Counted from the first letter of the stretch, positions 8,666-58,834 are shown. The stretch: 64,000 bases of DNA from an uncultured archaeon (GCA_963782915.1 CAWALK010000020.1:128001-192000), one strand, 5' to 3'. The notes: generated by a model not told the origin, from the sequence alone. Numbers and translations are program-made.

Positions 8666-8680
8666 GAAGTTAACCGACCA

Positions 8681-8810
8681 GTTTTTCTACAGTGTGTTGT
8701 TGGTGAAAACCCCCTATACACAACAACAACCAACAGAGTCTGGTGGCAGCTGTGTTTTAGCATCTGCGTCTGTATGGAGTTGCTGGCTGGTTGTGGCGTA
8801 TTCCGCAAGC
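8681..8810 (+). repeat. Dispersed intergenic element, left half (copy A)
   Basis: CCCCTATACACAACAACAACCA at 8711-8732 is identical to 44431-44452 and rc 58267-58288; also GCGTC and GTTGCWGGCTGGTTGTGG blocks. Confidence 0.85.
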
Positions 8811-8872
8811 GTAACCAGCGCATCCAATAGAAGACCACAAAAGCACCAACACAAATACCTACATAGATAACA

Positions 8873-9539: not shown

Positions 9540-9640
9540 CTACTACCTGCCTCAGAGGTACCTCCCCCTCCCTTATTTAAAGGATAAATAGAGTAGGCTG
9601 CTGTTGCTCTACCTTGACCCCCCTCCCCTTATAAAAAGCA
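9540..9640 (+). repeat. Dispersed element, two tandem right-half motifs (9540-9591, 9597-9640)
   Basis: CTACTACCT.CCTCAGAGG.ACCT.CCCCTCCCTTATTTAAAGGATAAATAG nearly identical to 35638-35689; second motif resembles 45649-45690. Confidence 0.8.
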
Positions 9641-10524: not shown

Positions 10525-10592
10525 ATTGCGCGGATAGCGTTCATTTTTCCTTGAATCGGATTTTACGATTTAGTGACTACTTTCTGGGCAAT
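10525..10592 (+). promoter_or_regulatory. Conserved structured 5' leader of TFB paralogue 1 (TATA-like TATATTAA ~10494)
   Basis: ATTGCGCGGA pairs with TCTGGGCAAT; inner GAATCG/CGATTT hairpin; shared with 15414-15482. Confidence 0.6.
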
Positions 10593-10605
10593 TAATGGAG
10601 TAAAA

Positions 10606-11595
10606 ATGAGCAACCAAATTATTATAACCAAAGAAATTCCCAAAACGTCTAAGCGTTTAGTTGAAAATTGCCCTGAATGTTCAAGTAAAAATCTTGTTCA
10701 CGACTACGACACAGGCGAAACCATTTGTGGCGACTGTGGTCTTGTTGTGTACGAGCAAATGATGGATAAAGGACCCGAATGGCGAGCTTTCACTTCAGAA
10801 GAGAAAGCCTCACGAAGCCGAGTCGGTATGCCGACATCCTATTCCATTCATGATAAGGGATTATCCACAACCATCAGTCAAGTCGACCGAGATGCATTCG
10901 GAAGAAAACTTCCAGCATCTACAAGACTTCAAATGTGGCGTCTTAGGAAGTGGCAAATACGCAGTCGAGTGCACTCCTCCGTCGACCGAAACCTTTCTCA
11001 AGCCATGAGTGAACTTGACCGTTTATCCGGAAGAATTACGATTTCACCAGCAATAAAAGAAAGAGCCGCCCTTGTTTACCGCAAAGCACTGGACAAAGGC
11101 TTGGTTCGCGGAAGATCAATATCTGCCATTGCAGCTGCCTCGTTGTACGCTGCTTGCCGCAAAAGCGGATTACCTAAAACTCTTCGCGAAATCGCTGAAG
11201 CAAGCCTTGTTAATAAAAAAGATGTTTCACGATGCTATAGACTACTGCTTCAGGAACTCGATTTCCATATGCCAATCTCTAACCCGTTGACCTACGTTTC
11301 GAAAATTGCATTAAAAACAGGAATCACCGGCAGAACGCAGGGCGCAGCGATAACAATACTCGCTGAAGCTAAACGGAAAAGATTCTCATCAGGAAAAGAT
11401 CCGATGGGCATGGCTGCAGCCGCACTCTACATAGCTTGTCTACAGAATGGCGAGAAAATAACACAAAGCGACATCGCGGAAGCGTCCGGAGTCACCGAGG
11501 TTACTGTTAGAAACAGGTACAAGGCACTAAAGAACCAGTTAAAGCTAGAAATACCAGACAAAAAAACCGTCGCTCAGCTTATTTGCTCTCCTTAA
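10606..11595 (+). CDS. tfb: Transcription initiation factor IIB (TFB), paralogue 1
   Basis: Zn ribbon CPEC..CGDCG, GPEWRAF, two cyclin repeats, GVTEVTVRNRY; GGAG RBS before ATG 10606. Confidence 0.97.
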   Translation: MSNQIIITKEIPKTSKRLVENCPECSSKNLVHDYDTGETICGDCGLVVYEQMMDKGPEWRAFTSEEKASRSRVGMPTSYSIHDKGLSTTISQVDRDAFGRKLPASTRLQMWRLRKWQIRSRVHSSVDRNLSQAMSELDRLSGRITISPAIKERAALVYRKALDKGLVRGRSISAIAAASLYAACRKSGLPKTLREIAEASLVNKKDVSRCYRLLLQELDFHMPISNPLTYVSKIALKTGITGRTQGAAITILAEAKRKRFSSGKDPMGMAAAALYIACLQNGEKITQSDIAEASGVTEVTVRNRYKALKNQLKLEIPDKKTVAQLICSP

Positions 11596-15505: not shown

Positions 15506-16474
15506 ATGACAATAACCCAACCCAGCACAACTAAAGATGTCCCAAAAGCACCTCAGCGCTTAACAGAAAATTGCCCTGAATGTCAAAGCAAAAACCTTGT
15601 TCATGACTATGACAGCGGCGAAACTATCTGCGGCGACTGTGGTCTAGTTCTTTATGAGACAATGCTGGATAAAGGACCTGAATGGCGAGCTTTCACGCAA
15701 CAAGAGAAAACCTCAAGAAGCCGCGTGGGCATGCCAACATCATACTCAATCCATGATAAAGGATTATCCACAACCATCAGTCAAGTTGACAGAGATGCTT
15801 TCGGAAGAAAACTGCCTCTATCCACAAGACTGCAAATGTGGCGTCTAAGAAAATGGCAAATACGCAGCAGAGTACACTCATCCATCGACCGAAACCTCTC
15901 CCAAGCCATGAGCGAACTTGAACGCCTCTCAAGCCACGTATCCATTACACCATCAATCAAAGAAAAAGCAGCGCTTATCTACCGCAAAGCACTCGACAAA
16001 GGCTTAGTCCGAGGAAGATCAATAAACGCCATTACCGCAGCTTCACTTTACGCTGCTTGCCGCGAAAGCGGAACACCAAGAACACTCCGAGAAATCTCGG
16101 AAGCAAGCTTAGTCGACAAAAAAGACGTTGCACGATGCTACAGGCTACTCATACAAGAAATCCGCTTTACCATGCCAGTCGCCGACTCATTAACATACGT
16201 TTCAAAGATTGCACAGAAAAACGGAATATCAGGCAGAACACAAGGCGCAGCCATAACAATCCTCGCCGAAGCTAAACGGAAACGGTTTGCAGCAGGAAAA
16301 GACCCCATGGGCTTAGCTGCAGCAGCACTCTACATCGCTTGTCTACAGCAAAACGAAAAGATCACACAAAAAGACATCGCTGAAGCCGCAGGAGTCACCG
16401 AAGTTACAGTTAGAAACCGATACAAATCGCTAAAGAAGCAGCTGCACCTCGAAGTGCCAGACAAAAAAGCCTAA
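15506..16474 (+). CDS. tfb: Transcription initiation factor IIB (TFB), paralogue 2
   Basis: Same motifs as paralogue 1; highly similar protein. Confidence 0.97.
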   Translation: MTITQPSTTKDVPKAPQRLTENCPECQSKNLVHDYDSGETICGDCGLVLYETMLDKGPEWRAFTQQEKTSRSRVGMPTSYSIHDKGLSTTISQVDRDAFGRKLPLSTRLQMWRLRKWQIRSRVHSSIDRNLSQAMSELERLSSHVSITPSIKEKAALIYRKALDKGLVRGRSINAITAASLYAACRESGTPRTLREISEASLVDKKDVARCYRLLIQEIRFTMPVADSLTYVSKIAQKNGISGRTQGAAITILAEAKRKRFAAGKDPMGLAAAALYIACLQQNEKITQKDIAEAAGVTEVTVRNRYKSLKKQLHLEVPDKKA

Positions 16475-19268: not shown

Positions 19269-19504
19269 CAAGTTAACCTTTTGGCTTAAGTGGTATCCGA
19301 TAAAAACCAATCGTTTGTCATTCGTATTTATCCATGGAGCAGTGTGGCTAGTGTATTGTGTTATAGTTGATGTTGTGGGTTTGGTTGGCTTTGACGTAAT
19401 TGCTTTTTTAAGGGTTAGATGAAGATTGGGTGTGCCTTGTTTTTCTAGTAGTAGATAATGGCAGGGAGCTCCCTTACTCTTCTTCTTCCCGCGGGCTTGG
19501 CTTG

Positions 19505-19567
19505 GCGTCTGTTTTGGTGTTGGGTTGCGGGGTGGGTTGCTGGCTGGTTGAGGAACAAACCACAAGC
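19505..19567 (+). repeat. Degenerate partial copy of dispersed element
   Basis: GCGTCTG...GTTGCTGGCTGGTTGAGGAACAAACCACAAGC versus copy B GTTGCAGGCTGGTTGTGGAGCAAACCGTAAGC. Confidence 0.55.
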
Positions 19568-19764
19568 TCCCACCCAAGAACATTTTTGCCAATATCCACC
19601 ATGTAAAATCCTGCCTTCAACTATATACACAGTAAAAGTCTTGAGAAGAGCAAAGGATATAGATGGCAATAAACGATTATCAAAGATAATAAATCGGGTG
19701 TGCAGGCAACTGCATCCATAAGCAATCGCTGATAAGGCTTCGTTCAGCGCAAAAGGCTTAAAAC

Positions 19765-29252: not shown

Positions 29253-30098
29253 TTATTTTGCGTAGGCTGCAACGAGGTCCCGAGCGGTAATTATTCCTAC
29301 TATTTTATTGTCTTTAACGACTGGTAGTCGTCTGATATGTTTTAGCGCCATTGTAGCAGCTGTTCTGTGAACACTTGTCCCAGCGGGAATGGTGATTAAG
29401 GGCGATGAACATTCTGGACCAACCTCAGTAAACAACGCTTTGCCAACCGCCAAGAAAGCAGTAAGCAAATCGCGTTCAGTAAAAATCCCAAACGGTTCCC
29501 CCTTGCGGGTGACTATGACGCTGCCGATCCGCTGCTTACCCATCAGTGCAGCTATCGTCTCTACTGATGTTGATTCATCCGCTGAAATAACATTTTTAGT
29601 CATGAAATCGTCAACCTTGGCCTCAGTTTCGGCGACATCAGGTAAGCTTTTGATTAAATCCGAAGAAGTTAGGACGCCCAAAAGTGTTCCAGCGTCGAAT
29701 ACTCCAAGTCTTCCTTTCTTACTGATCAGGGTCTGGGCTACTTCTTTGATTTTGGCGTTCACCGATATACCTGCCAGTGGATAGGACATTATATCCTCGA
29801 CTTTTTCGTCCTTCAAAAATAGCCCCAATGCAAACACTTTGCTAAACAAGTCGCGCTCGGTAATTATCCCCACTGGTGTTTGGTACTTTTCTACGATTAG
29901 GCTTCCAATGTGTTTCTCACCCATTTGTTTGGCTGCTTCTTCCAGTGGAGTTTCGGGGGTTGTGGTGATGACGTTTTTGCTCATTAATTCGTTGGCGGTT
30001 TGGTGCTGTGGCAAATCGCGTTTGTATTCTTCGTAGGCTATGTCGACGACGCCTAAAGGTTCCTTTTTTATTTGTTCTTGAGGTGTCGACAAAAACAT
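29253..30098 (-). CDS. CBS-domain protein (two CBS pairs)
   Basis: Repeated GIITERD / GIFTERD / GIITARD. Confidence 0.9.
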   Translation of the reverse strand: MFLSTPQEQIKKEPLGVVDIAYEEYKRDLPQHQTANELMSKNVITTTPETPLEEAAKQMGEKHIGSLIVEKYQTPVGIITERDLFSKVFALGLFLKDEKVEDIMSYPLAGISVNAKIKEVAQTLISKKGRLGVFDAGTLLGVLTSSDLIKSLPDVAETEAKVDDFMTKNVISADESTSVETIAALMGKQRIGSVIVTRKGEPFGIFTERDLLTAFLAVGKALFTEVGPECSSPLITIPAGTSVHRTAATMALKHIRRLPVVKDNKIVGIITARDLVAAYAK

Positions 30099-30264
30099 TC
30101 CTCATAATAGATATTGTTGAAACGGTTAAATTAACATTTCAAACAATCATAAACTAGAAAACAACTGCACAAAAAACCGCCATAAAACCCAACAAACCAT
30201 TAATCGCCCGAACAGAAAGATTGCACCCATATATCCCCAAGCTCACAGCTAGGCAGTTGTTGAG

Positions 30265-30338
30265 CCTATAAATAAGGGAGGGGGTACCTCTGTGGAGCAA
30301 AAGACCTCTTTTGTTTTTCGTTGGTTTGCTTACGGTTT
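30265..30338 (-). repeat. Dispersed element, right half (reverse)
   Basis: rc reads AAACCGTAAGC...CAGAGGTACCCCCTCCCTTATTTATAGG, matching copies B and E. Confidence 0.75.
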
Positions 30339-35389: not shown

Positions 35390-35487
35390 ATCTTGTGCAT
35401 CTCCAATAGACTAACGACTAATTGCTCTGAGAAGTATCGGCGGTGGAATTAATAATTTTGGTGTAGCTGGAAGGATTCAAGAGGCTG

Positions 35488-35689
35488 ATTTTCTCTCTTA
35501 GTTGTTGCTGTGGGTCATCTTATTTCAACAACAACCAACGATTTGGCAGACGGGTGTGTTTTGGCAATTGGGTTGTGGGATAGGTTGCTGGATGGTTGCG
35601 AGAGTTTTCCCCAAGCAGAACTAAAACTTGTTGGCGCCTACTACCTACCTCAGAGGCACCTACCCCTCCCTTATTTAAAGGATAAATAG
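35488..35689 (+). repeat. Dispersed element, contiguous left+right copy (copy E; left part degenerate)
   Basis: GTTGTTGCTG..CAACAACAACCAA, GTTGCTGGATGGTTG..CAAGCAGAAC, CAGAGGCACCTACCCCTCCCTTATTTAAAGGATAAATAG. Confidence 0.75.
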
Positions 35690-36409
35690 GCAACTTATAC
35701 AACTGATCCCTATACTGGCGAACAGCAAATATCTCCACCTGCCAAACACTATGAATGGCAAACCATCAATGTCACGATTAAGAATCAGCCCTTTACCCCG
35801 TACAAGCTGGCAATAGGGAACAACATTGTAGATGCTTCACTTTACTATAACGTTAAATTCAAGGGGCATTTTGAAGATGAATGGGGCTATTTTGACCCCG
35901 CTTACTATGTAGTTCAAGTCACCTCGGGGTCAAGTACAATTATAACATTCTTCGTGGGCGCAAATGGTCCGAATGGAGCAAGCGGGGAATGGGACCCACG
36001 ATTTCTAGAACGCTTGTCGGCTGATAGAGACGGCCAAGTTGATTTTCAAGTAGAAGCATTGTCGGGTTATGTACAACCGGGAAGTTTGGTTAAGTCACCT
36101 GCTTCTTATTTTGATGTTTGGGTGCCAGGTGTCTTTAATGGGACAGAAAGCGGCTGGAGCAATACACAAATCATAACTATCGGTGGGAGTACACCAACAG
36201 CAACTCCCAATGCCTCTTATCCCTCTCAAAGTTTATCACCCTCAGAAAGTCAAAAACCCACACCAAACCAGCCTAGCACTCAAATCACAATCCAGTTAGG
36301 GATAGATTGGACGCCGATAGCCATGGTTGCCTTGCTTGGTGTTATTGCTGTTTTGCTGGTAGTTACGGTTGTATTATTGCTTATGAGAAGAAAAAAGCAA
36401 ATTTTATAA
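35690..36409 (+). pseudogene. 5'-truncated member of the DPYTG secreted-protein family
   Basis: Open frame ATYTTDPYTG..IKNQP..YYNVKFKGH..VDFQVEA..GWSNTQ starts right after a TAG at the element end; signal peptide absent. Confidence 0.75.
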
Positions 36410-41085: not shown

Positions 41086-44000
41086 ATGCCAAAGTTCGAT
41101 TGGATAAAAAAAGTCATGGTTCTCGGAAGCGGCGCCATCAAAATCGGTGAAGCAGCAGAATTCGACTACAGCGGCAGCCAATGCATAAAAGCCCTACAGG
41201 AAGAAGGCATAGAAACCGTCCTCATCAACCCCAACATCGCCACCATCCAAACCGATCCACGCCTCTCAGGCAAAGTATATCTCCTTCCAGTTACTCCTGA
41301 ATTCGTAGAGAAAGTCATCGCTAAAGAACGCCCAGACGGCATCCTCTTGGGCTTCGGAGGACAAACCGCACTCAACTGCGGCTTAGAACTCGAAAAAACA
41401 GGAATCCTCCAAAAATACAACGTTAAAGTTTTAGGCACACCCGTCCAAGCCATCGAAGACACAGGCGACCGCGAACGGTTCCGCCAAGCCATGCAAAAAG
41501 CAGGCGTCCCATTCCTACAAAGCAAAGCCGCAACCAGCGTCAAACAAGCCCTAGACATCGCTGACGAAATCGGTTACCCCGTCATGGTCCGTGTAGCTTA
41601 CACTTTAGGCGGTAAAGGCGCAGGCGTTGCCCATGACCAAAAAGAACTCAAAGAAATAGCAACCATCGGCATAGCCCAGAGCCGCATCAACCAAGTCCTC
41701 GTAGAAGAATACGTGGGGCATTGGAAAGAAGTCGAATACGAAGTTATGCGTGACTACAAAGACAACTGCTTAACCGTCTGTAACATGGAAAACTTTGATC
41801 CCAATGGGCATCCACACCGGCGACTCCATCGTCGTTGCACCCTCACAAACTATGACTAACCGTGAGTACCACGGGATTCGCTCAATCTCCATAAACGCCA
41901 TCCGCGCGTTGGGCATCGTTGGTGAATGCAACATTCAGTGGGCACTTAACACCAAATCCGAGGAATGCCGCGTCATCGAAGTCAACTCAAGAATGTCACG
42001 CAGCAGCGCACTCGCAAGCAAAGTCACAGGTTACCCGCTCGCATACATCGCCACAAAACTAACTTTAGGCTATATACTGCCTGAGTTAATCAACAAAGTC
42101 ACCGAAGTCACCACCGCATGCTTCGAACCAGCCTTAGACTACATCACAGTCAAAATCCCAAGATGGGACCTGCAGAAATTCAAGAACGCAGACCGCCACG
42201 TTGGACCCCAAATGCGCAGCGTCGGCGAAGTCATGGCTATCGGCCGCTGCTTCGAAGAAGCACTCCAAAAAGCCGTCCGCATGCTCGACACAGGCAAAAT
42301 CGGTTTAGTCTGCAACCCAGAAGACGAAGAACCCGAATCCGAAGAACGCCTAAGAGACGAAATGGCACATCCAACAGACGAGCGCCTCTACAAAATCGGT
42401 AAAGCACTCAAAATGGGCATCCCAATCAATGAGATATACCGCTTAAGCGGCGTTGACCCATTCTTCCTCTACAAAATCCAAAACATCATCGACATGGAAG
42501 CCAAACTCTGCAAACTCAACTTAGCAGAAACAGGCGCAGCAGACATCATCCGCGAAGCCAAACGCATAGGCTTCTCAGACGAACAAATCGCAGTTTGCCA
42601 AAAAACCACTGAAGCAACAATCCGCAGCTTCCGCAAAAACGCAGGCATCATCCCAGTCGTAAAACAAATTGACACCTTAGCCGCGGAGTGGCCAGCAAAA
42701 ACCAACTATCTCTACATGACCTATGGCGGAGACGAAGACGACATAGAATTCACCAGCACACCAAGCAAAGTCATAGTTCTCGGTGCAGGCGTCTTCCGCA
42801 TCGGCAGCAGCGTAGAATTCGACTGGTGCGGCGTCAACACAATCTGGGCGCTCAAAAAGAATGGCATACAAGAAGCCATCATGGTCAACTACAACCCAGA
42901 AACCGTCTCCACAGACTACGATGTCATCAGACAAACTATACTTCGAAGAATTAACCAAAGAACGCATACTTGACATCTACGAAAAAGAAAACCCTCTGGG
43001 CATAATCACCAGTGTTGGTGGGCAAATCCCAAACAACCTCTCCATGCCACTCTGTGATGCAGGCGCAAAAATCTTAGGCACCTCAGCTCAGGACGTGGAT
43101 TTGGCAGAAGACCGCAGCAAATTCAGTGCATTACTTGACCAGTTGGGGATTCATCAGCCAAGCTGGAGCAAACTCCAATCCATCGATGATGCGAAACGGT
43201 TTGCAACCAAAATCGGTTACCCAGTACTCGTACGTCCAAGCTATGTACTCTCGGGTTCAGCAATGCGTGTAGCCTACAACGAAGTCGCACTTGAAAACTT
43301 CCTCAACTTAGCCGCGAAAGTTTCACGGGACCACCCAGTAGTTATCAGCAAATTCATCACCCGCGCCAAAGAAGTCGAAGTTGACGGCGTCTCAGACGGC
43401 GACAACGTATTCATCGGCGCAATCATGGAACACGTAGAAAACGCAGGCGTCCACAGCGGCGACGCAACCATGACCATCCCACCCCAAGCACTCAAGCCAG
43501 AAGTGCAGAAAGACATCGAAACCGCCACAATAAGCATCGTAAAAGCCCTAAAAATCCATGGCCCATACAACATCCAGTACCTCGTCAAAGACGACGTAGT
43601 CAACGTCATCGAATGCAACCTCCGCGCTTCACGCTCAATGCCCTTTGTTAGCAAATGCAGAGGCATAAACCTAATTGACTTCGCAACTTTGGCGATGCTG
43701 GGCAAAAAAATCGACCACGTCAAACTTTCCCCAATGCAAGTTGCCCCTCACGTCGGCGTAAAAGTTCCACAGTTCAGTTTCATGCGTTTAAGCGGCGCAG
43801 ACCCAGTCTTGGGCGTGGAAATGCTAAGCACAGGTGAAGTCGCATGTATCGGCGAGAGCTTCTCTGACGCATTCTCGAAGGCGTTGCAGTCAGCGGAGTT
43901 TACGATTCCACCCAAAGGCGGCTCAGTACTCATCAGCGTCGGCGGCGACGACCAACGCAAAGCACGCGTTGTCCCAATCGCACAGGCATTCGCAGATATG

Positions 44001-44364
44001 GGCTTCAAAATCTACTCCACATCCAACACTGCAAAAGTCTTAAACGACCACGGCATCGCAACTACAGTCCTGCATAAAGTCAAAGACCCAGACGTCACAC
44101 CCAACATCCTCGATTACCTGCAGGAACGCAAAATCGACTTAGTCATCAACGTGCCCATGGCTAATCGCCGCAGCAACATGAGTGACATCATAACCGACGG
44201 CTACATCATACGGCGCCAAGCAGTAGAATTCAACGTGCCAGTCATCACGAATTTGCAGTTGGCTCAGGCATTGGTGGATGTGATGCAGCCAGAAGAACCA
44301 GAACGGCAACACTATCCGCTCGCTTAATGAGTATATGGATGCGTTGCCCTGGAAGCAGTGGTAG
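41086..44364 (+). CDS. carB: Carbamoyl-phosphate synthase large subunit (frameshifted)
   Basis: GSGAIKIGEAAEFDYSG, two ATP-grasp halves, MGS domain. Confidence 0.96.
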
Positions 44365-44399
44365 CTGCTTTAGTTTTTCTTTTCTTTTTTGTTTAGCTT

Positions 44400-44610
44400 G
44401 TTTTTTCTACAGTGTGTTGTTGCTAAGAATCCCCTATACACAACAACAACCAATCGATTGTGCTGAGAATTGCTTTTGGCGTTTAGCGTCTGGTTTATGT
44501 TGCAGGCTGGTTGTGGAGCAAACCGTAAGCCGATACGAAAACCGAACAAAAAAACATGCGCTTTACTGCTTTGCCGAAGGCCCCTATCCCCTATAAAAGG
44601 GAAAAAGGGT
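44400..44610 (+). repeat. Dispersed element, full copy (copy B)
   Basis: TTTTCTACAGTGTGTTGTTG..CCCCTATACACAACAACAACCA..GCGTCTG..GTTGCAGGCTGGTTGTGG..AAACCGTAAGC..CCCCTATCCCCTATAAAAGG. Confidence 0.85.
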
Positions 44611-44654
44611 TTTATGCTGTTTGCATCGGCATCTCTTGCTGCCGAGCCGTCATC

Positions 44655-45474
44655 TCACCCTTAATAAAAGCCAAAATATCCTGATTGATCTGCTGCTTAT
44701 GCGTCGTTGGATATGCCATGAGGCGCTCCAGGATAAACCTTCAATGTAGCATTCTTTATGATCTTGGAGGAAAGCATCGCCGGAGTCGGCAAACGGCACA
44801 ATCTGGTCATCGTCGCCATGAATAATCAACGTGGGCACATCAATTTTTTTGAGGTCTTCTGTTTGGTCAGTTTCCGAGAAGGCTTTAATGCATTCGTATG
44901 CCGCCTGGAAACCGCCATCATGCCTTGATGCCAGAAGTTGTCGCGTACGCCTTCGGAGACTTTTGCGCCGGGCCGGTTGTAGCCATAGAATTGCATGGAG
45001 AGGTCTTTGAAGAATTGTGATCGGTCCGCGATGATGGCTTCTCGGAGTTGGTTAAAGGCTTCGATGGGTAACCCGCCGGGGTTAGCTGGGGTTTTTAGCA
45101 TCAAAGGCGGAATCGCGCTGATCAGAATAACTTTTGAAACCCGCTTGGTGCCATGCCTTGCGATGTAGCGGACCACTTCGCCGCCCCCAGTCGAGTGGCC
45201 AACAAGAATGGCGTCTTTGGCAAAAGTTTTCTCGATTAAATCGTTCAAGTCGTCAGCGTATTGGTCCATATTGTTGCCGGTCCAAGGCTGGCTTGAGCGC
45301 CCATGCCCACGGCGGTCATGCGCAATACAGCGATACCCCCGCTGCGCCAAATAGAACATTTGGTCCTCCCAAGCGTCTGAATTCAGCGGCCAACCGTGAC
45401 TAAAAACGATTGGTTGACCATTCGCCCCATTCTTTATAGAATAATTCTGCTCCATTTACGATTAATTTTGCCAT
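44655..45474 (-). CDS. Non-heme chloroperoxidase / alpha-beta hydrolase (frameshifted)
   Basis: [30 protein letters not shown]. Confidence 0.9.
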
Positions 45475-45648
45475 AAAAAACACCTTATTTCTAGTTGAAC
45501 GATGGTTGGTGCGGAATTTTAGATTATGTAGCTTCAAAATGTAATTACAAAGCTGTGCTGTTAGTCATCCTGCAAACAATGGGTAACCTTTCGTCTCAGC
45601 GTCTGCGTCCCTCATTATATAGCGCTCTAAAAGGTGCCATGACAGAAG

Positions 45649-45690
45649 CACTGTTGCTTTGCCGACCTACCCCCTCCCCTATATATAGAT
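45649..45690 (+). repeat. Dispersed element, right-end motif
   Basis: CTGTTGCTTTGCCGACCTACCCCCTCCCCTATATA resembles 44561-44600 and 9601-9635. Confidence 0.6.
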
Positions 45691-45702
45691 TCAACGGCAG
45701 GT

Positions 45703-46560
45703 TCAACTTTTGGTATTAGCCATCTTACGCCACATCACAACCATACCCACCGCCAAAACAGCAACCACCACAACCAACCCAACAATAGCGGCTCTTTCCC
45801 AATCAAGCCCCGTAAGCAGGTTTATTTGGGCATCCTGCGGGGTGGCTGTTGCTGTTGGATTCTGTGTAGGTGGCGCTGTTACGGTTGGGGTTGCTGTTGA
45901 TGATGCTGGCGTAGGTGAAGCTGTTGTTTCGGTAACTGTTACCTCTCCACTGCCGATGGTTAATGTCTGTGTAGGGCTCCAGTTTCCTACTTCACCGGTG
46001 AATCTGTAAACAGTCATTTCACCGCCAATTGGACTTGGACCCTGATAAGTTATGTCATCGTGTCCAATGAGTGCCTGCACTTGCACGTCTAAAGTGCCGC
46101 CGTTAAAAATCTGTCCTATTTGCCAATAGGGCAGAGTAACGATAGTATTGCCGGACTGTGAAGCTATGGCGTAGCTCCATCCATGCGATTTACTATCTTG
46201 GGGGTCTACTGGATAGTACTTCCACTCATTTTCGTAATGCCCCTTGAATCGGACATTGTAGTATAGTTTTGTCCAGTTGCCACTGGTATCCAAAGTTGAA
46301 GAAAACTGCGAAGTTTTAATTTCTGTAAAAATGGTTTTGTTGTATCCAGTGTATCCTTCCTGCTCAATCACTGTTTGCCCAGTATAGGGGTCTGTTTTGT
46401 ATGTTGGCTCTACGTTGTAGGCGTCAATGGAATACTTTACTGAGAATTCTGGTACTGGGGGTATCGGAGCTGAAGCGGATGCAGTTTGAACCATAATTAG
46501 ACTTGAAACTGCTAGGGCAAGGATAAACGCTATTGAGCAGACCTTACGCATGTTGGTCAT
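45703..46560 (-). CDS. Secreted, C-terminally anchored DPYTG-family surface protein
   Basis: Signal peptide, VPEFSV, TDPYTG, YYNVRFKGH, PT-rich linker, TM and basic tail. Confidence 0.75.
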   Translation of the reverse strand: MTNMRKVCSIAFILALAVSSLIMVQTASASAPIPPVPEFSVKYSIDAYNVEPTYKTDPYTGQTVIEQEGYTGYNKTIFTEIKTSQFSSTLDTSGNWTKLYYNVRFKGHYENEWKYYPVDPQDSKSHGWSYAIASQSGNTIVTLPYWQIGQIFNGGTLDVQVQALIGHDDITYQGPSPIGGEMTVYRFTGEVGNWSPTQTLTIGSGEVTVTETTASPTPASSTATPTVTAPPTQNPTATATPQDAQINLLTGLDWERAAIVGLVVVVAVLAVGMVVMWRKMANTKS

Positions 46561-47468
46561 ATTTTTCTTCTCCGTAAGAGCACAAGTGCAACGGCTAAAG
46601 CAGCAATTACACTGCATGCCACTGCAAGGGCGATATCTTTCCAAGCGAACCCTGATAGGACGTCAGTTTGTGTGTTGGGTTGGATGGGTGTTTGTGTGGG
46701 GTTCTGTGTAGGTTCAGCTGTAGGACTAGCGGTTGGTGTGGGCTGGATTGGCGAGGATGAAGGTGAAGCTGATGATTGGCTGATTGTGACTTCGCCGCTA
46801 CCAACGGTTATTGTTTTGGTGTTGCTCAACTCGCTGCATTCGCCGGTAAAAATATAGTAGTGAAGAACATCGCCCAGTTGGGAGGATGGAAGACCAATCC
46901 ACGTCTCGTTGATGCGTGTGGAGTAGCCGATGATTGCTTGAACCCTAAAATCCACTCGCCCGCCAATCGAAACGTTGCCGAGGGCATGGCTATATTTGTA
47001 TGTGATATCCGTACCGTTGTTTCCAGCTAAACTATATGCTATAACAGTATTCTCTGATTCAGAACTAGGAACACAGTAGCCAGTAGGGTATGAATCATAG
47101 ATTTTCCTATTTATGGCACCGCTATCCCAGTTTTCGATGTCCCAACTTTCAAAATGCCCTTTAAAGACAATGCGATAGTAAAGCCAAACAAGAGAGCCAT
47201 TTTCGTTGCGGTAGGAAGTGTAGGGTTGGTTTTTAATAATAACTTCAACTGAACTGTTCTGTACATGGTACCCAGCTTGTGTTATTACTGTTTTTCCTGT
47301 ATACGGGTCTGTATCATAGATTGCTGGGACATCATAGGAGTTGTCAACGTATCTTACGGTGAATTCTGGCACTGAAGGTTTAGGGACTGAGGCACATGCA
47401 GATTGAACCATAATTATGCTTGATGCTGTGAGGATTAGTATGAGTGCTAACGTGATTGTTCTGCTCAT
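46557..47468 (-). CDS. Secreted, C-terminally anchored DPYTG-family surface protein (paralogue)
   Basis: PSVPEFTV, TDPYTG, IKNQP, FKGH, VDFRVQA, PST linker, TM, RRRK. Confidence 0.78.
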   Translation of the reverse strand: MSRTITLALILILTASSIIMVQSACASVPKPSVPEFTVRYVDNSYDVPAIYDTDPYTGKTVITQAGYHVQNSSVEVIIKNQPYTSYRNENGSLVWLYYRIVFKGHFESWDIENWDSGAINRKIYDSYPTGYCVPSSESENTVIAYSLAGNNGTDITYKYSHALGNVSIGGRVDFRVQAIIGYSTRINETWIGLPSSQLGDVLHYYIFTGECSELSNTKTITVGSGEVTISQSSASPSSSPIQPTPTASPTAEPTQNPTQTPIQPNTQTDVLSGFAWKDIALAVACSVIAALAVALVLLRRRKI

Positions 47469-58081: not shown

Positions 58082-58180
58082 TTGGCTTTCGACTCGGTTG
58101 TTTGATTAGGTTACGGTGTGGGTTTCTTAGCTTTTTCTATAGTTCCCCTCAAGCGACAGTAGATTAAAAAAATTTGTGCT

Positions 58181-58316
58181 GTTCTGCTTGCAGTTAACGC
58201 CACAACCAGCCTGCAACCCAACCGTGACGCTGTAGAGCAAAAACGCAATCATCCGCAAATGCCTGCTGGTTGTTGTTGTGTATAGGGGTTTTCAGCAACA
58301 ACAACTATAGAAAAAC
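58181..58316 (-). repeat. Dispersed element, left half (copy C, reverse)
   Basis: rc TTTTCTATAGTTGTTGTTGCTGAAAACCCCTATACACAACAACAACCA..GCGTC..GTTGCAGGCTGGTTGTGGCG..CAAGCAGAAC. Confidence 0.85.
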
Positions 58317-58360
58317 AGAGTGCCAACCAACTTTGAGCTAATGGCAAGGAAAAAAGGTGG

Positions 58361-58834
58361 TTACCTTTCGATTATTTCCCGAGTTTTAAGGTAAACATCC
58401 ACTGGTTTGATTGGTGTACCGCAGCCTTTGCAGATCAAAATTTTTCCTGCCTCTGGAATATCTGCCATATTGTTGCATTTGGGGCAGTTGCACGCTTGCA
58501 TTACGATGCTCTTCTTGGTTAACCATTCACGTAGCGAAGCGAAATCTTCGATTGCTTTTGCCTCAAGTGTTCGCTCTGGTCTGCAGATATGTGGTGTTCC
58601 TCTTCTGCCGCATTTCGGGCAAATGTGACCGTACTCGAAAATTTCGAAAACACATGGTAAACAAAGCTTCTTTTTCTCGTATTCTGGTAGCTTCTTCTCT
58701 TGCCCAAACTGGGGTGACGCCATAACCATGAATTTAATGTAGCCTTTGCGTAGCTGCATATTCCAAAATACGGTGTTGCGTTCTGGCCAAGTTAATTCTT
58801 CTCCACATCTTGCACATGTATCCATACAGTTCAA
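58361..58834 (-). CDS. Multi zinc-finger hypothetical protein
   Basis: Five CxxC pairs. Confidence 0.6.
   Translation of the reverse strand: MNCMDTCARCGEELTWPERNTVFWNMQLRKGYIKFMVMASPQFGQEKKLPEYEKKKLCLPCVFEIFEYGHICPKCGRRGTPHICRPERTLEAKAIEDFASLREWLTKKSIVMQACNCPKCNNMADIPEAGKILICKGCGTPIKPVDVYLKTREIIER

Follow-up and report, generated by a model that had tools for sequence, protein, structure and literature searches.

A dispersed intergenic repeat in a Bathyarchaeia genome is probably a miniature transposable element tied to an ISH3-like insertion sequence

Results

The flagged spacer holds one copy of an abundant repeat

We analysed a 64,000-nt stretch of DNA from an uncultured archaeon (the window), which corresponds to positions 128001-192000 of contig C20 in a source genome (G000) of 3.28 Mb and 25 contigs, so that a window coordinate is the C20 coordinate minus 128000. 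In the spacer between carB (carbamoyl-phosphate synthase large subunit) and an open reading frame (ORF) for an alpha/beta-hydrolase, a first-pass annotation made from the sequence alone had flagged a dispersed bipartite element of ~200 nt. We find that this spacer contains a copy of a repeat with a ~132-nt core, which we read as a candidate miniature inverted-repeat transposable element (MITE) related to a co-resident insertion sequence (IS), together with a weak form of a second repeat, the right module (RM). The features of the spacer are:

44368-44371: putative left target duplication, CTTT, equal in length to the 4-bp duplications of the IS
44372-44568, plus strand: flagged copy, a putative 197-bp MITE with degenerate ends (nhmmer 44394-44577, E 2.7e-45; bounds read from the sequence)
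44413-44451, plus strand: hairpin 1, with arms GTTGTTG at 44416-44422 and CAACAAC at 44441-44447 and an 18-nt loop containing CCCCTATACA
44499-44530, plus strand: conserved blocks B6-B7, GTTGCAGGCTGGTTGTGG...GTAAGC, towards the core's right end (repeat family D10)
44569-44572: putative right target duplication, CTTT, read from the sequence
44581-44601, plus strand: weak RM-like motif CCCCTATCCCCTATAAAAGGG, a variant read by eye

The right end of this copy (GCGCTTTACTG) is recognisable and its left end (AGTTTTTCTTTT) barely so as an inverted repeat, and on a reading that includes the terminal CTG the CTTT repeat extends to 7 nt, CTGCTTT. The columns of B6-B7 are of high information in G000 and in other genomes alike.

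The repeat is real, abundant and multicopy. Its 22-nt core motif, CCCCTATACACAACAACAACCA, said to be identical at 8711, 44431 and, in reverse complement, 58267, is exact at all three positions, and none of 100 dinucleotide shuffles of the sequence matched it. Repeat finding returned the left, middle and right blocks, and both contiguous copies and all seven half-copies of the first-pass annotation were located where it had placed them. A core profile made from five window copies, used in an nhmmer search of the G000 contigs, gave 204 matches at E<=10, with 176 below 1e-3, 129 below 1e-10 and 68 below 1e-20. The 176 copies are spread over 17 of the 25 contigs; since contig C5 duplicates parts of C22 (~179500-194500, 94.8-99.5% identity over ~930-nt stretches), likely through assembly redundancy or as a strain variant, four of them are counted twice.

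As had been claimed, copies occur in both orientations (85 plus, 91 minus strand) and between genes: with neighbourhoods taken from a purpose-made hexamer-scored gene caller, 170 of the 176 lie outside called genes and 6 overlap one by more than 30%. Orientation relative to neighbouring genes is close to random. The upstream gene is on the same strand in 78 cases and on the opposite strand in 91 (one further copy is without an upstream neighbour), and the downstream gene on the same strand in 64 and the opposite in 105. Among 882 neighbouring ORFs no protein family was enriched, the largest cluster having six members. We rejected integron-like cassettes, each made of an ORF and an element, given the near-random orientation and the lack of an integrase or other family enriched beside the copies; two window copies do lie within insertions that also bear an accessory ORF.

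The limits of the core were read from similarity between copies, which starts within -3 to +6 nt of GTTTTTCTATAG in 222 of 386 in-register pairs and whose right limits peak at 132-135 nt, after GCAAGCAGAAC. Between these limits lie the hairpin and the blocks GTTTTGG, GGTTGCAGGCTGGTTGTGG and GCAAGCAG. With terminal ends included, copies measure ~175-210 bp, bounded examples being 187 and 197 bp, and ~175-190 bp for three copies named L110, L089 and L133. A few conserved bases (..CTTG) stand directly outside the left end of the core, and on visual inspection many end-less copies show a subterminal 16-nt segment. The other four core copies of the window are:

8672-8856, plus strand: core copy without recognisable inverted repeats (nhmmer E 1.1e-48), flanked by a 163-aa ORF without annotation and by the gene of a GNAT acetyltransferase (Pfam)
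19435-19620, plus strand: core copy of subfamily C (nhmmer E 6.3e-31), with an A-rich 5' arm, the 3' arm CTTCTTCTTCC and a partly degenerate hairpin
35478-35665, plus strand: core copy orthologous in three species (nhmmer E 5.1e-43), its left junction common to G000, G007 and G005
58157-58343, minus strand: putative complete 187-bp MITE (nhmmer 58156-58324, E 8e-41) with both inverted repeats, left CATTAGCTCAAA at 58343-58332 and right TTTAATCTACTG at 58168-58157; its flanks, TTGC and TCGC, are alike at 3 of 4 positions

In a metagenome run (X1; contigs, 85% likeness) examined over 42900-45500, the summed contig depth was 1288 and 462 in the core bins, far above the ~10 of the flanks. One 3386-nt contig of this run tracks carB to 44363 and resumes at 44651 with ~280 unaligned letters between, and is not a clean empty site.

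The right module is a second, independent repeat

The modules of the proposed bipartite element exist as described; the single element does not. The left and middle part and the RM are two independent repeat families that are sometimes juxtaposed, an intact RM lying within 175 nt downstream in 13 of 116 full cores. In each of these 13 the orientation is direct, and a rough calculation gives a chance expectation of about one. The limits of the RM are sharp, running from about -30 to +10/+23 around CCCY-TAT and giving 40-55 nt of C-rich sequence, in which a short palindrome (CCTCAGAGG or GCTC..GAGC) is followed by CCTACCCCCTCCC and then by a TATA-like box. The family consensus often shows tandem pairs at a distance of ~55 nt.

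The RM was amplified in the source species only. When the pattern CCCCTCCCYTATWTAWAG was run on G000 and 40 same-genus genomes, it returned 115 matches in G000 (reversed-pattern control, 0), 9 in G046, 2 in G007, 1 each in G002, G005 and G042, and 0 in the other 35. A stricter pattern gave 84 sites in G000, none of them inside a gene and 39 of them with a co-oriented downstream gene. A GAAA-type transcription factor B recognition element (BRE), which is present at the tRNA promoters of G000, is absent before the TATA-like box of the RM, and we therefore do not read the RM as an ordinary promoter. Besides the weak motif at 44581-44601, the window contains:

9540-9591, plus strand: RM type a, no adjoining core; exact pattern at 9565-9582
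9618-9638, plus strand: second RM variant in tandem, CCCCCCTCCCCTTATAAAAAG, read by eye
30259-30303, minus strand: RM type b, from repeat finding (I5, I16, I22); exact pattern at 30266-30283
35638-35689, plus strand: RM type a, CTACTACCTACCTCAGAGGCACCTACCCCTCCCTTATTTAAAGGATAAATAG, 52 nt, 94% identical to 9540-9591 (family D11); exact pattern at 35663-35680
45651-45695, plus strand: RM type c, no adjoining core, from repeat finding (I5); exact pattern at 45671-45688

At the flagged copy the RM half of the annotation holds only in part. The motif is there, but as a weak variant, and the stretch 44581-44601 aligns with the element-less spacer of G007 and G014 and is thus resident intergenic DNA outside the insertion. 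At 35478-35665 no intact RM was seen in the orthologous stretches of G007 and G005, so that the RM there is intact in G000 alone.

A GT-rich 'downstream module' of ~130 nt follows the type-b RM (window ~30130-30258, minus strand) and extends up to the start of a CBS-domain gene at 30098; it recurs in 8 other copies, for example at C15:288743, C20:393119 and C19:87627. Its short ORFs conserve neither frame nor length, and neither it nor the RM matched Rfam. Inspection by eye led us to reject a small hydrophobic peptide encoded in the core or the downstream module, as frames and stops differ between copies and any GT-rich strand reads as hydrophobic.

Some core copies have the ends of an ISH3-like insertion sequence

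The first-pass annotation had seen no terminal inverted repeats, target duplications or nearby transposase. At the level of the family all three are present, with the inverted repeats and duplications limited to a minority of copies and the transposase encoded elsewhere in the genome, so that they were not visible in most copies of the window. Terminal inverted repeats of 12-13 bp, CAGTAGATCAAAA...TTTTGATCTACTG, occur on about a fifth of core copies and equal the ends of the IS described below. Of 94 anchored full core copies in G000, 20 carry the left repeat (9 or more of 13 positions matched) at an offset of -32 to -25 relative to the core, compared with 3 over 40 other offsets. At a threshold of 10 of 13 the left repeat is found in 13 of the 94 (controls 0 and 1) and the right repeat in 12 (controls 0 and 2). 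Both ends in the correct inverted arrangement are carried by 5 G000 copies, that at 58157-58343 included, and the 106 full copies from other Bathyarchaeia genomes yielded a left repeat in 24, a right in 23 and both in 12. Genome-wide, and allowing no more than one mismatch, G000 holds 42 end sites vs 15 in a shuffled genome, and many of the G000 sites adjoin the C-rich or A/T half of an RM.

Three copies from other Bathyarchaeia genomes, read base by base, have the make-up of textbook MITEs. L110 reads TTAT-CAGTGGATCAAA...TTTGATTTACTG-TTAT, L089 is flanked by TTAT on either side and L133 by TATA, and both L110 and L133 are located within RM-like sites.

The IS itself was discovered through an ORF with DDE motifs that lies between two cores on contig C15. 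The copies found in G000 are:

C15:305350-306477: complete IS, 1128 bp, with perfect ends CAGTAGATCAAA...TTTGATCTACTG, split by a frameshift
C23:82973-84099: complete IS, 98.8% identical to the C15 copy, with an intact 360-aa transposase frame
C18:122595-123911: complete IS, 1317 bp, at 64-69% amino-acid identity, for which the genome search gave 2 in-frame TAG stops
C20:~263032-264128, outside the window: degraded IS copy

All three complete copies have perfect 12-nt inverted repeats. The transposase matches Pfam DDE_Tnp_1 at 39.2 bits (cut-off 23), and its best NCBIfam model is that of the ISH3 family (transpos_ISH3; E 2.4e-53, positions 2-296 of 298), a soft assignment because the score of 181.2 bits lies below the curated cut-off of 225. 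In a tblastn search against plasmids, its relatives were annotated as ISH3, at 27-31% identity, on Sulfolobus, Nostoc and haloarchaeal plasmids. Each of the three complete G000 copies interrupts an RM at one place, giving ...CCCTCCCTTAT / IS / TTATATAAAG or the reverse, with a 4-bp duplication of TTAT or ATAA. In another species (G054), a 79% identical IS with identical perfect ends lies within CCTCCCCTCCCTTAT / IS / TTATATAAAG and has a TTAT duplication. All four complete copies examined thus sit in ...CCCTCCCTTAT^ATAAAG, that is, at the TTAT of an RM.

Of 41 same-genus genomes, 4 proved to encode the transposase (G000, G043, G041 and G016). At C24:81511, C22:78443-79511, C24:118593, C25:94027 and C1:39077 of the source genome, the CAGTAGATCAAA end is joined to a different interior (for example ...TTCTCTATTTTCTAAAGAAAAACA), possibly marking a second MITE family on the same transposase.

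The first-pass annotation had listed a match to a known IS end or to an Rfam family as counting against its proposal. The ends of the intact copies do equal those of the co-resident ISH3-like IS, which serves to identify the element, and no Rfam family matches: the whole window gave 0 matches at gathering thresholds, and searches around two copies returned noise only (11 and 16 bits vs gathering scores of 95 and 109).

Relatives show empty sites and one shared copy

The idea of a non-autonomous mobile element fared well, being borne out by the 176 copies and by sites that are empty in relatives. The carB-hydrolase spacer is short and element-free in G007 and G014, and in G005 it holds a decayed copy. 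The copy at 58157-58343 lies between genes for a GATase and a PDH_C protein that are directly adjacent in G007, G014 and G015, the G000 insert comprising ~750 extra bases made up of a Cys-rich 157-aa ORF and the putative MITE. This ORF (58361-58834, minus strand) has several CxxC pairs and no Pfam match, and part of it matches a stretch of G007 (contig C114) beside another core. G007 has a core copy on the other side of its GATase gene, with no counterpart in G000.

The survey within the genus covered 19 genomes, G000 included. Three of them have many cores (G000, G005 and G007; assembly completeness 91-93.5%), 5 have 1-2 weak matches and 11 have none, and no cores were found in twelve genomes from other genera of the order. 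Beyond this set, with one genome per species, a 20-mer of the core matched at least 98 stretches, of which the 80 examined all come from eight assemblies named Bathyarchaeia or 'uncultured archaeon'. The same 20-mer had 0 exact matches in viral contigs, and we rejected a viral origin.

One locus was examined as a shared orthologous copy, that at 35478-35665. Across G000, G007 and G005 its blocks are kept and its spacers are unalignable, where coding DNA is 76-82% identical; a relic of the left end, CAGTAGAGAATCAAG, is still present in G007 and has been lost in G000 and G005. In a wider orthology test that started from 16 copies in G005 and G007, blastn found 1 with both flanks collinear in G000, at a site empty of the core, the test being insensitive at ~70-75% DNA identity.

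Blocks within the core change slowly and one hairpin covaries

Conservation inside the core is strongly uneven. To avoid circularity, block and spacer columns were defined on 112 copies of other genomes, leaving out the region that had been used to fish them, and for each of 104 G000 copies we then scored the changes that set it apart from the two copies nearest to it, that is, changes on terminal branches:

Block columns: 234 changes in 3897 (6.0%)
Intermediate columns: 364 changes in 2469 (14.7%)
Spacer columns: 489 changes in 2141 (22.8%)

Blocks are thus 3.8 times slower than spacers (odds ratio 0.22, Fisher p 1e-78), a contrast that could be inflated by misaligned, indel-rich spacers or by preferential detection of copies with good blocks; gene conversion among copies may also have taken place. 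Because most copies are end-less while their blocks change slowly, and because the blocks are kept at the orthologous site, the data suggest that the core itself is under constraint. Its slow internal evolution makes it probable that the core acts sequence-specifically where it is located.

The arms of hairpin 1, TGTTGTTG and CAACAACA, which had been proposed to pair, can do so and covary between subfamilies. In a 106-copy alignment, deduplicated before counting, the pair at columns 19/42 is T-A in 78 sequences, A-T in 23 and something else in 3, and the pair at columns 16/45 is T-A in 79, A-T in 22 and something else in 4, with standard pairs kept in 95-97% of sequences. As read from the alignment, the GTTGTTG/CAACAAC and GAAGAAG/CTTCTTC subfamilies are told apart by six pairs, and this compensatory switch may have happened once and been passed on within one subfamily. 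Covariation was seen for this helix and for no other. The consensus fold of 105 copies was an empty structure on both strands, and folding energies of single copies are weak (z -0.9 on the plus and -1.4 on the minus strand).

Neighbouring genes in the window

The carB gene (41795-44364) is split into two frames, 41795-42973 and 42861-44327, where most relatives have one of ~1090-1140 aa (684-851 aa in a few that are cut short). Its final residues, NEYMDALPWKQW*, are read in a different frame that runs to 44364, and the split together with this out-of-frame end implies at least two frameshifts, real or due to assembly errors. On the other side of the flagged copy, the 209-aa hydrolase ORF (44620-45455, minus strand) aligns to relatives over residues 8-181 only; the DNA downstream of it can still be aligned to G007 and G014, but in a shifted frame, pointing to a probable frameshift near the 3' end of the ORF. 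A paralogous family without a Pfam match, probably of membrane or secreted proteins, is encoded at 35700-36409, 45703-46644 (minus) and 46557-47468 (minus), and genome-wide five of its members adjoin cores. In the first of these, a conserved YYNVKFKGHFEDEW stretch lies in another frame, so that 35954-36409 appears frameshifted. Finally, the stretches 10626-11340 and 15529-16243, within the paralogous genes 10573-11595 and 15506-16474, are 76-82% identical.

Discussion

We favour, at a probability of roughly 60%, the reading that the core is a MITE tied to the ISH3-like IS, that the RM is its preferred target, and that the core probably acts sequence-specifically. That the core family has transposed is something we infer from its sequence. 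On this account the DDE transposase of the IS would cut and paste the MITE in trans, each insertion producing a 4-bp duplication at TTAT- or TATA-like sites. The favourite target would be the TATA-like box of the independent RM repeat. Cores and RMs would then often be neighbours, hence the bipartite look of the window copies. Most G000 copies would be old and would have lost their inverted repeats, while the role of the core itself might lie, for example, in protein binding or in a structured transcript.

Several observations weigh against this account. Duplications are imperfect or missing in several two-ended copies, such as that at 58157-58343 with its 3 of 4 matching positions. Inverted repeats within single copies, at 10 or more of 11 positions, occur in 3 of 94 copies vs 4 and 7 in shuffled and direct-repeat controls, and in about four fifths of the G000 copies inverted repeats do not rise above controls. 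Nor do copies with ends stand out as clearly younger than those without, the mean scores being 88.6 vs 79.0 bits (p 0.09) and nearest-neighbour identities 83.9% vs 83.7%, so that a simple decay of ends is not demonstrated. Similarity between copies mostly ends with the 132-nt core instead of at the inverted repeats. The transposase was not found in the core-rich genomes G005 and G007, nor was it found in 4 of 5 further element-bearing genomes (G053, G055, G056 and G057), one of these four being a single 2.94-Mb record titled chromosome; some of the assemblies without it are incomplete. The ISH3 assignment is soft, as noted, and the slow internal blocks, if their contrast with the spacers is not inflated, are unlike what would be expected of a plain decaying MITE.

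Slow blocks could find a place in a bolder form of the MITE reading, in which an ISH3-type MITE scattered through Bathy-6 genomes a core that was domesticated and is kept by selection at many sites. We hold this to be possible, though doubtful. The core would then serve as a structured transcript or as the docking site of a host protein. If this were true, a regulatory or chromosome-organising network joining about 100-plus intergenic regions would owe its wiring to a transposon, with the C-rich, TATA-like RM as a second and very recently amplified layer.

Somewhat less likely still is that the 132-nt core is a host element, either a multicopy small RNA gene or a protein-binding platform, with most copies spread or retained for their function, and that the end-flanked copies are an offshoot formed when a shell derived from an IS took up the core. 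The sharp limits of the core speak for a unit of this kind, as do its slow terminal-branch evolution, the blocks kept at one site in three species, the six compensatory pair differences and the ~80% of copies without inverted repeats. A small RNA gene would, however, be hard to square with the lack of a consistent promoter on either strand (a tRNA-type GAAA-N2-TTTAAATA does not stand at a fixed distance from the core), or with a single covarying helix, unremarkable folding energies, an empty consensus fold and no Rfam family. Orientation relative to neighbours is nearly random, and the presence of many copies in just 3 of 19 same-genus genomes argues against an essential function across the genus. 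Some copies are plainly decaying, for example the G005 copy after carB, and clean single-unit insertions with target duplications exist in L110, L089 and L133.

The first-pass annotation had leaned towards a REP-like or rolling-circle-like element, and a single-strand HUH/Y1 element of the IS200/IS605 type, or of the type of repetitive extragenic palindromes (REPs) with REP-associated tyrosine transposases (RAYTs), would use sub-terminal hairpins as signals in single-stranded DNA, insert beside a short fixed sequence and lack inverted repeats and duplications. Most copies are indeed sharp-ended without either, a conserved hairpin lies ~12 nt inside the left end with a possible second one, CTGGTTGTGG...CCGCAAGCAG, near the right end, and there are the conserved ..CTTG bases outside the left end. 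Yet Pfam Y1_Tnp (PF01797) has 0 matches in G000, G005 and G007, and is found instead in 16 of 40 other same-genus genomes, which have none or one to two cores; the one TnpB zinc-ribbon match in G000 is marginal (21.6 bits), and the second hairpin does not covary. Since core ends match IS ends and copies with DDE-type inverted repeats and 4-bp duplications exist, the core is better described as a MITE, and we give the HUH/Y1 alternative very little weight.

Just as improbable is a terminator-plus-promoter cassette in which a left T-run stops transcription and the TATA-like box of the RM starts the next gene, the repeat then being regulatory DNA of an ordinary, shared kind. There is a T5-6 run at the left end, a TATA-like box in the RM and one RM with its downstream module correctly oriented before the CBS-domain gene. 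Against it, no more than 78 of 169 copies have an upstream gene on their own strand and 64 of 170 a downstream one, the gene downstream of the RM is co-oriented in 39 of 84, the RM lacks the GAAA-type BRE of tRNA promoters, and 115 RM matches in G000 vs 0-9 in each of 40 same-genus genomes are not those of the general promoter of a lineage.

The kind of system proposed here, a MITE with its IS, is known, and is apparently undescribed in Bathyarchaeia. Our full-text search of the literature found no description of MITEs or of this IS in the group, and passages of a 2026 survey of archaeal IS (PMC13343696) do not mention Bathyarchaeia. The family accounts for ~22 kb of repeats and for many synteny breaks in these genomes, and copies of the putative MITE offer markers by which strains can be typed and the quality of assemblies judged. 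Strict selection of one 18-nt motif by the IS would make it a possible model of a site-specific DDE transposase, and the slow internal blocks raise the question of whether this lineage has come to make use of sequence carried by a transposon.

The closest parallel is to archaeal and bacterial MITEs mobilised in trans by DDE IS, of which the SM-type MITEs of Sulfolobus are an example. Like them, the core is small, non-coding, multicopy and intergenic, shares identical inverted repeats with a co-resident IS, has duplications of the length seen for that IS, varies in presence among relatives, and persists where the IS is not found. Unlike them, about a fifth of core copies keep inverted repeats, similarity mostly ends at the core, and the core is better conserved than the ends, with a hairpin maintained by compensatory changes. 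The IS in turn resembles the ISH3 family, whose duplications are of 4-5 bp according to ISfinder, in having one DDE transposase ORF (344-360 aa) that covers the full NCBIfam profile, short inverted repeats and a 4-bp duplication in both G000 and G054. It differs in its score of 181 bits, below the cut-off of 225, in its length of 1113-1317 bp, at the short end of the family's size or below it, and in its strict target, the C-rich/TATA-like repeat in 4 of 4 cases. Such a target recalls IS1397, which inserts at one position in enterobacterial REPs and bacterial interspersed mosaic elements (BIMEs), these and BOX elements being mosaic intergenic repeats. Here too an IS enters a dispersed intergenic repeat at one position, and the repeats form modular mosaics with variable spacers, whereas the host is an archaeon, the transposase is of another family, the target is a TATA-like box rather than the REP palindrome and, in contrast to REPs and BIMEs with RAYTs, no RAYT/Y1 gene was found in G000, G005 or G007.

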